64,000 bases of DNA from Escherichia coli. Its GTDB lineage: Bacteria > Pseudomonadota > Gammaproteobacteria > Enterobacterales > Enterobacteriaceae. Position 1 is the stretch's first letter, and every line of letters begins with the position of its first letter. This document shows, one piece after another, positions 24,001-27,000 of the stretch. Made by a program: the position numbers. The DNA is taken from the NCBI RefSeq assembly GCF_001677475.2, contig NZ_CP015229.1. One strand, given 5' to 3'.

Positions 24001-27000
24001 AAGTGAGTAATGATGAAAATCCATACCACAGAGGCGCTCATGAAGGCTGAAATCAGCCGTAGAAGTCTGATGAAAACCTCCGCACTTGGCAGTCTCGCGC
24101 TGGCAAGCAGTGCTTTCACTCTGCCATTTTCCCAAATGGTCCGAGCGGCAGAGACACCGGTAGAAGAGAAAGCGGTCTGGAGTTCCTGCACCGTTAACTG
24201 CGGGAGCCGCTGTCTGTTACGTTTGCATGTGAAAGATGACACCATGTACTGGGTGGAGTCTGATACGACAGGTGACGACGTTTACGGTAATCATCAGGTT
24301 CGGGCATGTTTACGCGGGCGCTCTATCCGCCGACGGATGAATCATCCTGACAGGTTGAAATATCCCATGAAGCGCGTCGGCAAGCGCGGTGAAGGTAAAT
24401 TTGAACGGATAAGTTGGGACGAAGCCCTGGATACCATCAGTGATAATCTTCGGCGGATCCTAAAAGATTACGGCAATGAGGCTGTACATGTTCTCTATGG
24501 AACAGGCGTAGATGGCGGAAACATCACCAACTCAAACGTCCCGTACCGTCTGATGAACTCTTGCGGTGGTTTTCTCAGTCGCTATGGCAGCTACAGTACC
24601 GCACAGATCAGTGCCGCAATGAGTTATATGTTCGGTGCCAATGATGGCAACAGCCCGGATGATATCGCCAATACGAAGCTGGTCGTTATGTTCGGAAATA
24701 ATCCGGCAGAAACGCGGATGAGCGGCGGTGGTGTCACTTACTACGTCGAGCAAGCCCGCGAACGTTCAAACGCACGCATGATCGTCATCGACCCACGTTA
24801 TAACGACACAGCTGCCGGGCGTGAAGATGAATGGCTGCCCATTCGCCCTGGCACCGATGGCGCACTGGCCTGTGCGATTGCCTGGGTACTGATTACTGAA
24901 AACATGGTCGATCAGCCATTTCTCGACAAATATTGTGTTGGTTACGATGAAAAAACGCTGCCCGCCAACGCACCACGTAACGCGCATTATAAAGCCTATA
25001 TTCTGGGCGAAGGGCCTGACGGCATAGCTAAAACGCCGGAATGGGCAGCAAAAATCACCAGCATCCCGGCAGAAAAAATTATCCAGTTGGCACGAGAGAT
25101 CGGTTCAGCAAAACCTGCTTATATTTGTCAGGGTTGGGGGCCACAACGACATTCCAACGGCGAGCAAACGTCCCGCGCTATTGCCATGCTTTCCGTTCTC
25201 ACCGGTAACGTCGGCATAAACGGCGGCAACTCAGGTGTACGCGAAGGTAGCTGGGATCTGGGGGTAGAATGGTTCCCGATGCTCGAGAATCCTGTTAAAA
25301 CGCAGATTTCCGTCTTTACATGGACAGATGCCATCGACCATGGTACGGAAATGACCGCGACCCGTGATGGTGTTCGTGGAAAAGAAAAACTGGATGTCCC
25401 CATCAAGTTTTTATGGTGCTACGCCAGTAACACATTGATCAATCAACATGGCGACATCAATCACACCCATGAGGTGCTTCAGGATGACAGCAAGTGCGAG
25501 ATGATTGTTGGCATTGACCACTTCATGACGGCCTCGGCTAAGTATTGCGATATCCTGTTGCCCGACCTGATGCCAACAGAGCAAGAAGACCTTATCTCTC
25601 ATGAATCTGCAGGGAATATGGGCTATGTGATCCTCGCCCAACCCGCAACCTCAGCAAAATTTGAACGCAAACCCATCTACTGGATGCTGAGTGAAGTCGC
25701 CAAACGCTTAGGACCGGACGTTTATCAAACCTTTACTGAAGGTCGCAGTCAGCATGAATGGATCAAATATCTCCATGCGAAAACGAAGGAACGTAACCCT
25801 GAGATGCCCGACTACGAGGAGATGAAAACGACCGGGATCTTTAAGAAAAAATGCCCGGAAGAACACTACGTCGCTTTCCGCGCATTCCGTGAAGATCCAC
25901 AGGCAAACCCGTTGAAAACACCTTCGGGGAAAATCGAAATTTATTCTGAACGACTGGCGACGATTGCGGATACCTGGGAATTGAAAAAAGATGAAATTAT
26001 TCATCCCCTTCCTGCGTATACCCCAGGTTTTGATGGCTGGGACGATCCCCTGCGGAAAACCTATCCACTGCAGCTAACGGGCTTCCACTACAAAGCGCGT
26101 ACCCACTCCAGCTACGGCAATATTGATGTGTTACAGCAGGCCTGCCCACAAGAGGTGTGGATCAACCCCATTGATGCTCAGGCACGCGGTATCCGTCATG
26201 GCGATACCGTGCGGGTATTTAACACTAATGGAGAAATGCTGATTGCCGCAAAAGTGACTCCGCGTATTCTGCCTGGCGTTACCGCCATCGGGCAAGGTGC
26301 GTGGCTTAAAGCGGATATGTTTGGTGACCGGGTCGATCACGGCGGCAGTATCAATATTCTGACCTCTCACCGCCCTTCACCGCTGGCAAAGGGAAACCCG
26401 TCGCACAGCAATCTTGTCCAGATCGAAAAGGTTTAAGGAGTAGCCCATGACCACACAATATGGATTTTTTATCGATTCCAGCCGCTGTACTGGCTGTAAA
26501 ACCTGCGAACTGGCGTGCAAAGATTTTAAAGTTGGTTACGTATCGTTTAAAATCAATTAGATAGCCCGTCATTTCTGCGCTCACACGTCCCAACATTGAA
26601 AAACATGCAAAGCTTTGTAAGCCGATGCAAAGCTTTGTGTGTCTCACTTTTGTCCCAATACCAATCCGAATCCACCCTTTGTCATCATTGAGAAATGGCA
26701 AGGAAGAAAAGGATGTTACTGCACGATTTGACAAATCCGCCAGAGCTATCGCATACTGATCGCACTGAACAAATAAGCGGTCTCCGCACCCGATAGCTTT
26801 GCGGCTTTTTTATGCCTGCAATTTGGCATAGTTACATCCGTACAAAGGTCGGGTGGAGAGGCGTAATACAACACCCGCAAGGGGAATATGCCCAGAGCTT
26901 CTTATTTGGCTCAGTTGACACCCGACCGCCAGCTACTAACTGGCGGTTATAAACTAAACAAATAAGGAGGTCATCATGACCAGTCAACTCATCCCCGTAT

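Follow-up and report, generated by a model that had tools for sequence, protein, structure and literature searches.

The paired 14-nt repeats ATGCAAAGCTTTGT found beside a prophage junction in the E. coli gene ynfG are the two best units (numbers 1 and 3) of a 10-bp-phased direct-repeat array, and this array is probably the region to which the excisionase (Xis) of the phage binds. The array lies in the P arm, on the side away from int, of the attP site of a P22-family recombination module, which integrates into ynfG rather than into a tRNA gene. An earlier, sequence-only reading had described the pattern as two direct repeats; both copies are real, but they make up only a part of the array. 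Of the three roles that it had offered for them (arm-type integrase sites, excisionase sites, or operators of a regulator), the excisionase sites are the best supported, by their position, by the homology with the P arm of P22, and by the phasing at one helical turn.

Within the window, i.e., the whole 64-kb stretch of DNA that was analysed, the two copies match exactly at 26605-26618 and 26625-26638, both on the + strand, 20 bp apart from start to start and with a gap of 6 bp, and each contains the perfect palindrome CAAAGCTTTG (26608-26617 and 26628-26637), as had been noticed beforehand. The first copy begins 74 nt past the core TTTAAAG, which agrees with the earlier estimate of about 75 bp inside the prophage boundary. 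Beyond these two copies, no match to ATGCAAAGCTTTGT was present in the window even when 2 mismatches were allowed, and the pair is the sole case there of an exact direct repeat of at least 14 nt within 60 nt. First-order Markov simulations gave a mean of 0.02 such repeats, with only 3 of 200 runs containing any; these simulations, together with the conservation of the element across phage genera, ruled out a chance origin of the pair.

The point of crossover was deduced from both prophage junctions in the genome NZ_CP060061, in which the junction is 100% identical to that of the window. The reconstructed, uninterrupted ynfG attB has a match of 100% identity and is covered over at least 80% of its length in 5236 of 5426 E. 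coli genomes. The prophage is a 933W-like short-tailed Stx-type phage, and not a Lederbergvirus. The gene for its integrase (Int) lies outside the window and was followed in the same prophage type, i.e., behind the identical NZ_CP060061 junction and in phage PhiR5_2, in which both the arm and Int are identical to those of this module. Int has 387 aa, the same length as P22 Int, with which it shares 71% identity, and a Pfam Phage_integrase match. The xis gene is a 123-aa ORF (L003 40313-40684) that overlaps the start of int and has a Pfam HTH_17 match; in its N-terminal part Xis is ~80% identical to P22 Xis, the helix-turn-helix (HTH) ISRPTA.NWIRTGRLQATRK being common to both, and a search of solved structures for a relative of Xis found none.

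When the arm was used in blastn searches, 134 phage records matched, and the homology with the P22 arm spans 118 bp, including both copies of the motif. The arm was compared across 17 related phages and 22 diverged arm families (<85% identical), whereas 80 integrase loci from IMG/VR were of no use for the arms, because their prophage contigs stop 3 nt past int and lack the P arm. The features that were placed on the arm by these comparisons are collected in the table.

Table. Features of the ynfG junction and of the P arm of attP, in positions of the window.
Feature	Position	Strand	Basis
Left half of attB: 5' part of the host gene ynfG, up to the crossover	26448..26531	+	RefSeq: truncated 4Fe-4S protein after ynfF
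Common core TTTAAAG, the sole attP/attB identity; probably the 7-bp overlap region	26525..26531	.	7-mer shared by the two junctions (the other one: L003 41756-41762)
P22-homologous P arm of attP, extent	26546..26663	+	blastn, 82-85% identity to P22, L, ST64T and others; alignment
IHF-like site AATCAATTAGATA, one mismatch vs WATCAANNNNTTR	26551..26563	+	Consensus match only
Inner (core-proximal) arm-type Int site: block GCTCACACGTCCCA, site proper CGTCCCA	26579..26592	+	Kept in P22, SfV, 2G7b and others
10-bp-phased direct-repeat array, proposed Xis/RDF binding and bending region	26593..26639	+	Phasing, spacing, P22 P-arm homology
Hairpin of self-complementary units, 17 pairs, loop of 6 nt, with an A run and CTCACTTTTG on its flanks	26603..26642	+	Terminator scan
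Outer pair of arm-type Int sites TGTCTCA-CTTT-TGTCCCA	26640..26657	+	In all P22-type arms, with 11-bp spacing

Outward from TTTAAAG, the order is the IHF-like site, the inner arm site CGTCCCA, the 47-bp array and the outer pair of arm sites. This is the order seen in the attP of P22, where two arm sites likewise lie inside the 3' end of int, and a near-consensus IHF-like site is found at the equivalent place in P22, 2G7b, Gifsy-2, SEN22 and BZS1. The two systems differ at the core, which in P22 is the 3' end of a tRNA-Thr gene and measures about 46 bp, whereas here it consists of the 7 bp TTTAAAG in a protein-coding gene, and the homology to the P22 arm begins 15 bp beyond it. The two copies of the motif are non-palindromic in P22 (ATGCAAAGCCTTGC, ATGCAAAGATTTGT), unlike here, and the middle unit of P22, TTGCAAAC, is a better copy than the middle unit of this arm. 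The P22 recombination module has thus been retargeted to a 7-bp core in a protein-coding gene with its arms almost unchanged, knowledge that helps to predict how such prophages excise and to reprogramme integrases.

The array comprises four to five head-to-tail units of one helical turn each, which read in order ACATTGAAAAA, CATGCAAAGC, TTTGTAAGCC, GATGCAAAGC and TTTGTG, with the consensus nATGnAAAGn. Its phasing was quantified in 22 representative families (<85% identical), in which the identity at a lag of 10 was 0.525 vs 0.274 expected (z = 17.5), and z was 15.2 at a lag of 20 and 5.8 at a lag of 30. The phasing persists in the 14 families without TGCAAAG (z = 12.4). Common to all 22 families are the T at unit position 3 and the AAA at positions 6-8, the G at position 4 being moderately conserved. 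In an independent sample of arms that was anchored on the inner arm site rather than on the motif, the distance from the inner arm site to the outer pair was exactly 48 nt in 74 of the 74 arms that have the outer pair. The 10-bp periodicity is seen in all of the 22 diverged families. For integrases of this family, the invariant 48-nt spacing and the strict 10-bp phasing may aid the annotation of attP arms.

The sites that flank the array on both sides belong to Int. As judged from the sequence comparisons, the arm-type Int sites are the repeat TGTCCCA, which is distinct from the ATGCAAAGCTTTGT motif and from the core. Two copies lie on the int-side arm, where they form an equivalent pair with 11-bp spacing (L003, about 41659-41676), and one plus two lie on the P arm, giving five Int arm sites. 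Across 14 phages, TGTCCCA co-varies with the class of the Int N-terminal domain; TGGCACA or TGACACA takes its place precisely in the phages in which that domain changes, HK75, mEp213, BHUENT6 and Ehr59. The inner arm site reads TGGCACA in HK75 and mEp213, whose Int N-terminal domain differs, and the outer pair becomes TGTCACA/CGGCACA or TGACACA when the domain switches. Since TGTCCCA is the arm-type Int repeat, the stretch between these sites is left for an accessory protein.

It had also been proposed that the ATGCAAAGCTTTGT repeats might themselves be arm-type sites, to be bound by the N-terminal domain of Int (residues 1-65), since they are direct repeats in an att arm. This is now very improbable. 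Comparison with the other prophage junction, which had been suggested as a check, yielded a single ATGCAAAG 8-mer on the int-side arm, over the stop codon of int (L003, about 41692-41699), but this 8-mer is not conserved in P22, 2G7b and SfV, and it was dropped as a real site. It is TGTCCCA, with its 2 + 1 + 2 layout over two arms, that tracks the Int N-terminal domain, and not the ATGCAAAGCTTTGT motif. Moreover, HK75 and mEp213 keep an apparent fossil TGCAAAG array beside arm sites of the other type, and the motif is absent from APSE-2 even though the Int N-terminal domain and the GTCCCA pair are kept there.

The accessory protein that binds the array is most likely Xis. Members of the RDF class bind head to tail to tandem repeats that are one DNA turn apart (PMC7498355), and the DNA used to assay P22 Xis had a 'single operator' (PMC7498355), which fits an array that is bounded on both sides by arm sites. 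Xis protomers would occupy the units in a cooperative, head-to-tail manner along a single face of the helix, which would bend the arm and allow Int on the flanking arm sites to reach the core, and the arm bent in this manner would drive excision and disfavour re-integration, as lambda Xis does at X1-X1.5-X2. P22 Int and Xis were reportedly footprinted by Smith-Mungo, Chan and Landy (in 1994) and by Mattis, Gumport and Gardner (in 2008), and the published Xis footprint presumably falls in this part of the arm.

The sequence of the units changes alongside the Xis HTH in APSE-2, L191, BZS1 and HK75, but not in ES18 and SfV. APSE-2 combines a P22-type Int N-terminal domain with a Xis HTH of another sequence, and its arm lacks TGCAAAG units. 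In ES18, on the other hand, the Xis HTH is identical to that of P22, yet the units read ATAGAAAT / GTCGAAAG / ATATAAAAG, and in SfV-type arms unit 3 differs while the Xis HTH is different by one residue. A clean covariation of recognition helix and unit, which might have served as proof, is therefore broken by ES18 and SfV.

Since the units have only the T at position 3 and the AAA at positions 6-8 in common, selection could be acting on phased A-tracts, i.e., intrinsic curvature, or on the binding of a host protein. The array would then be a bending spacer without excisionase, in which A-tract curvature or a nucleoid protein such as Fis brings the outer Int sites to the core. The recurrence of nothing but the T and the AAA run every 10 bp in all 22 families speaks for this explanation, as do the different units of ES18 and P22 with the same Xis HTH. 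P22 recombination is also said (Cho et al., in 1999) to proceed without a need for IHF, so another source of bending is plausible. In lambda, a Fis site overlaps X2; none is known for this arm. The explanation is nevertheless unlikely, since positions outside the A-tracts are conserved too (the T, and moderately the G at position 4), the units within a lineage are far more alike than curvature needs (here with two identical 14-mers), and APSE-2, with its divergent Xis HTH, has lost the unit sequence. In studied systems such as lambda, furthermore, the RDF sites occupy this very arm position, between the arm-type sites and the core-proximal IHF site.

The resemblance of the proposed Xis array to lambda extends to its architecture. 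In lambda, X1-X1.5-X2 also consists of head-to-tail, one-turn units, two strong ones 20 bp apart and a weak one between them, on the arm opposite int, with an arm-type Int site to one side and the core-proximal IHF site to the other. There is, by contrast, no similarity to lambda in the sequence of either the sites or the protein, the array here has 4-5 units, and an extra arm-type Int site is placed between it and the IHF-like site. The RDF that binds the lambda Xis sites is a small protein of the winged-helix type and bends the DNA (PMC7498355). The element is thus most likely of an ordinary, already understood kind, which follows the lambda/P22 paradigm and would not surprise a specialist. 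A full-text search of the literature gave nothing relevant on the motif strings or on a ynfG attP. What is gained is a map of the att site for the ynfG-integrating 933W-like phages, including the Shiga-toxin phages 75/02 Stx and POCJ13, with the core, the IHF-like site, the five Int arm sites and the proposed excisionase array.

The palindrome CAAAGCTTTG is lineage-specific, being imperfect in P22 and absent in most families, and is a by-product. On repetition, the TTGCAAAGC unit of this lineage becomes self-complementary. Such units fold into a hairpin, whose energy is -23.1 kcal/mol (z = -5.4) here, as compared with -17.3 kcal/mol (z = -3.9) in P22. In the hairpin of the window, 5 of the 17 pairs are G-C, and the T run begins 5 nt past the stem. 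The hairpin is terminator-like and possibly has a secondary function. If the element worked mainly as an RNA hairpin, either as an intrinsic terminator, perhaps in both directions, or in the manner of lambda sib, int transcripts crossing attP in the free phage would be terminated or destabilised by it, until integration separates the hairpin from int, and in the lysogen it could keep host ynfEF transcription from running on into the prophage.

Lambda sib sits across the core from int, as does the hairpin here, which, like sib/tI, is parted from int by integration; it differs from sib/tI in lying inside the arm, between Int sites, instead of beyond the arm, in having no sequence relation to it, and in not being found in all related arms. 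The hairpin was flagged by the terminator scan, with its 17 pairs and the tail CTCACTTTTG, and in the record of phage L the corresponding position carries a terminator annotation, on the opposite strand. In 14 of the 22 arm families the fold is better than that of shuffled sequences (z below -2), and in the TGCAAAG family pairing is seen in 89.9% of cells, as compared with at most 56% when the partners are slid. Four pairs have changed on both sides in this family, but these changes trace to about 2-3 events. The other 8 families have no significant hairpin, and elsewhere its position in the array shifts, whereas the 10-bp phasing and the 48-nt spacing are universal. Many relatives lack the T run and have AAATCTG there, wobble-compatible mismatches (64 vs 45) show no strand bias and so mark no single strand as RNA, and Rfam gave no family match for the hairpin, with only a sub-threshold hit to mir-19. 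A mainly RNA role is accordingly improbable.

A conserved dyad with compensatory changes is, however, not predicted by a pure direct-repeat model. It is conceivable, although we would not expect it, that the element has a dual use, as an excisionase-binding and bending array in DNA and as a lineage-specific terminating or destabilising hairpin in RNA. If so, int transcripts of the free phage would carry a sib-like retroregulator within the arm, which integration disconnects, the hairpin could act in the lysogen on ynfEF read-through that otherwise enters the antirepressor module, and the compensatory stem changes would reflect selection on both functions. A separate candidate for a lambda tI-like terminator, at 26785-26813, was rejected, with a weak fold (z = -0.7) that the scan did not flag.

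The perfect 10-bp palindromes, with centres two helical turns apart, could also be read as operators, which would be bound by a dimeric regulator of the neighbouring antirepressor gene (ant), ~340 bp downstream. The element is not an operator of ant, which belongs to a separate module, and we regard a role of this kind as exceedingly improbable. The motif goes with the int/xis/att module and not with ant: in P22 the motif is followed by gtrA, and in Stx phages that share this ant module but carry other integrases the match to the window begins only at 26727. The imperfect palindromes of P22 (CAAAGCCTTG, CAAAGATTTG) and the absence of the palindrome in most families also argue against operators, as does the lack of further copies of the motif in the prophage, and the ant module has a promoter-like site of its own at 26728-26757. 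The same module contains an Rfam match to sRNA-Xcc1, at 26847-26935.

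The prophage arm adjoining ynfG carries two copies of the 14-mer ATGCAAAGCTTTGT, each containing the perfect palindrome CAAAGCTTTG, as the sequence-only reading had described; that reading placed the pair about 75 bp inside the prophage boundary, and the first copy begins 74 nt inside the exact crossover. The pair is the only case of exact direct repeats of at least 14 nt within 60 nt in the 64-kb window, where first-order Markov simulations give an expectation of 0.02 (any present in 3 of 200 simulations), and ATGCAAAGCTTTGT has no further match elsewhere in the window with up to two mismatches. 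The repeat is real, and a chance origin is unlikely.

In the window, the E. coli chromosome runs through ynfE, ynfF and the 5′-terminal 84 nt of ynfG, after which a prophage of the 933W-like, short-tailed type begins; other E. coli genomes share this ynfG/prophage junction with 100% identity. The window does not reach the int end of the prophage. In NZ_CP060061, the opposite prophage end carries xis, int and the remainder of ynfG, and TTTAAAG is the sole sequence common to both junctions. The uninterrupted ynfG site, rebuilt by joining the two host flanks via TTTAAAG, matches E. coli genomes at 100% identity and is at least 80% covered in 5236 of 5426, which, together with the shared TTTAAAG, makes the boundary exact. 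The repeats therefore sit on the arm opposite int, i.e., the P arm in lambda terms.

Features of the ynfG-proximal prophage arm and its surroundings (window positions)
Feature	Position	Strand or orientation	Basis or detail
ynfF	24010-26436		
TTTAAAG, shared by both junctions	26525-26531		
IHF-like site	26551-26563		between core and inner arm site; one mismatch to consensus
TGTCCCA pair	within int 3′ end, codons VPNxSH	all five copies in one orientation	comparison of relatives
TGTCCCA single copy	26586-26592, core side of P arm	same as other four	
TGTCCCA pair	26640-26657, outer end of P arm	same as other three	
10-bp-phased array	26593-26639		one unit per helical turn
14-mer ATGCAAAGCTTTGT	26605-26618 and 26625-26638	+	sequence match
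Hairpin	26603-26642		17 pairs; -23.1 kcal/mol, z -5.4; flanks: A run and CTCACTTTTG
Promoter-like site of ant module	26728-26757	+	TTGACA-18-CATACT, 10/12
sRNA-Xcc1 (RF02221) match	26847-26935	+	Rfam, 69.1 bits vs gathering score 53, E 1.8e-12
ant	26976-27605		antA/AntB antirepressor ORF

With 26525-26730 as query, a sensitive DNA search matched three phages that integrate in ynfG (75/02 Stx, POCJ13 and PhiR5_2) at 100% identity and gave 97 records in the 80–90% band; among the matches listed were Salmonella phages P22, L, ST64T and relatives, at 82–85% over 26546-26663, and the corresponding P22 region lies directly downstream of P22 int and the attP core. PhiR5_2 links arm and integrase, since it has identical copies of both. 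The integrase is equal in length to P22 Int and 71% identical to it, and the ORF upstream, overlapping int, encodes a 123-aa HTH_17 protein whose N-terminal part is ~80% identical to P22 Xis (excisionase). At 40313-40684 of the NZ_CP060061 locus (L003), this intact xis ORF overlaps the int start, as in P22; RefSeq has there only a 66-nt pseudogene fragment, “helix-turn-helix domain-containing protein”. The element belongs to the P22/lambda type of attP, with arms that are nearly unchanged but a new core, TTTAAAG within ynfG instead of a tRNA end. The two copies in P22 read ATGCAAAGCCTTGC and ATGCAAAGATTTGT, so that the palindrome of the window's copies is not conserved.

The repeats had been proposed as candidate arm-type integrase sites, a role that is not supported, as they lack the two-arm distribution: the int-side arm holds only one 8-mer of the motif, overlapping the int stop codon and not conserved among relatives. 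It is the 7-bp repeat TGTCCCA that has this distribution instead. Comparison of int-attP regions from 17 relatives placed two copies in the int 3′ end, one in the inner and two in the outer P arm. In HK75, mEp213, BHUENT6 and Ehr59, which have a different type of Int N-terminal domain (MSIKLRGGTWHCDF...), TGTCCCA is replaced by TGGCACA, TGACACA or TGACAC, with the 2 + 1 + 2 layout being retained in HK75 and mEp213. The distribution over both arms and the covariation with the Int N-terminal domain mark TGTCCCA as the arm-type integrase site, and the layout agrees with that of P22, where P has three arm sites and P′ has two. The IHF-like site was found again in relatives. The int-side arm sites lie within the integrase frame (about 41659-41676 of L003; about 2377-2394 of the P22 int-attP locus, L004), where GTCCCAAATnTGTCCCAC encodes VPNxSH, so that the C-terminal codons of Int and the sites it binds are under mutual constraint.

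Arms were sampled without bias toward the motif by scanning for the inner arm-site block GCTCACACGTCCCA across the viral collection; 74 of the 95 distinct arms had the outer pair, in every case at a distance of exactly 48 nt from this block. Clustering of the intervening sequence at 85% identity gave 22 array families, which have very different sequences and share the pattern tgATGCnAAAA / gATGnAAAGn / caTGnaAAnn / gnTnnAAAnc / nnTGnn. Identity at a lag of 10 across these families was 0.525 vs 0.274 in shuffles (z 17.5), with z 15.2 at lag 20, z 5.8 at lag 30 and neighbouring lags at or below expectation; in the 14 families without TGCAAAG, the lag-10 z was 12.4. This 10-nt periodicity makes the two 14-mers units 1 and 3 of a phased array, whose unit 2 in the window, TTTGTAAGCC, is a degenerate copy, P22 having a better one (TTGCAAAC). 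The P arm at the Gifsy-2 prophage end (L219, about 2201-2281) is of the P22 family: its inner and outer GTCCCA sites and the 48-nt spacing are the same, and its array belongs to a different family (GATACCAATC / CATGCCAATA / GTTAAAAACG).

Recombination directionality factors bind cooperatively, in head-to-tail fashion, to tandem repeats spaced by one turn of DNA (PMC7498355). According to that paper, P22 Xis was assayed on “single operator” DNA, and a second point on P22 Xis relayed there fits an array with arm sites abutting on both sides. In APSE-2, the Int N-domain is still of the P22 type and the GTCCCA pair is kept; its Xis HTH is different and the array units are absent. Given the one-turn tandem repeats, the arm sites on both sides and the APSE-2 case, the array is most likely the excisionase-binding and bending region, which favours the earlier suggestion of excisionase sites; Xis would bind the array units and bend the P arm. 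The array would then correspond to X1-X1.5-X2 of lambda, whose two strong sites also lie 20 bp apart. Covariation between array and Xis is imperfect: ES18 has a Xis HTH identical to that of P22, yet its units read ATAGAAAT / GTCGAAAG / ATATAAAAG, and SfV-type arms, whose Xis HTH differs by one residue, have a different unit 3. In ES18 (L218, 2190-2290), Int and Xis are almost identical to those of P22, the core is the same and the 10-bp array is quite different; either T..AAA is all that a P22-type Xis reads, or array exchange occurs independently of xis. Since the only bases universal across the families are T (unit position 3) and AAA (positions 6–8), phased A-tracts giving intrinsic curvature, or a host protein, remain a rival account of the array.

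The palindromes arise because TTGCAAAGC, when repeated, is self-complementary. The hairpin is flagged by a terminator scan, and the phage L record has a terminator annotated on the opposite strand at the corresponding position. Folding was better than in shuffles in 14 of the 22 families, at shifting positions. In the TGCAAAG family, stem pairing is preserved in 89.9% of cells vs at most 56% in slid controls, with four pairs altered on both sides (~2–3 events). Wobble-compatible stem mismatches showed no strand bias, and the T run after the stem is absent from many relatives. The dyad symmetry is thus genuine, though a secondary feature that not all families have; the hairpin may act as a terminator or in a sib-like way, and a dual DNA/RNA role for the array seems unlikely.

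In Stx phages that share the ant (antirepressor) module but have other integrases and integration sites, homology does not begin until 26727; the motif is thus part of the int/xis/att module and not of ant. This linkage, and the lack of extra copies in the window (near-matches in the rest of the prophage occur at chance rate), speak against the motif being an operator for a regulator, as had also been suggested. An operator for ant in particular was rejected, as the ant module has its own promoter-like site and an sRNA-Xcc1 match directly upstream of the antirepressor ORF. The stretch 26727-26757 marks a mosaic joint between the att and ant modules, and sRNA-Xcc1 with ant resembles a P1 c4-type antisense-RNA/ant immunity cassette. 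By eye, a short CCGCA/TGCGG stem at 26785-26813 (+), with CTTTTTTAT after it, resembles a terminator; its fold is weak (z -0.7), the scan did not call it, and it was discarded as a terminator.

The host ynfG sequence left of the crossover (26516-26531), TGCAAAGATTTTAAAG, resembles the phage unit TGCAAAGCTTTGTAAG at 13 of 16 positions, a likeness that is probably due to chance. In HK75 (L093, about 2575-2640), and at the same place in mEp213 (L095), an apparent fossil P22-type array with an outer arm pair (GCACAAAGTCTTGCAATCCAGTGCAAAGCCTTGTGTGTCTCAGTTTTGTCT) adjoins the outer side of their own TGGCACA-type P arm and seems to be left over from a previous att module that was replaced by recombination.
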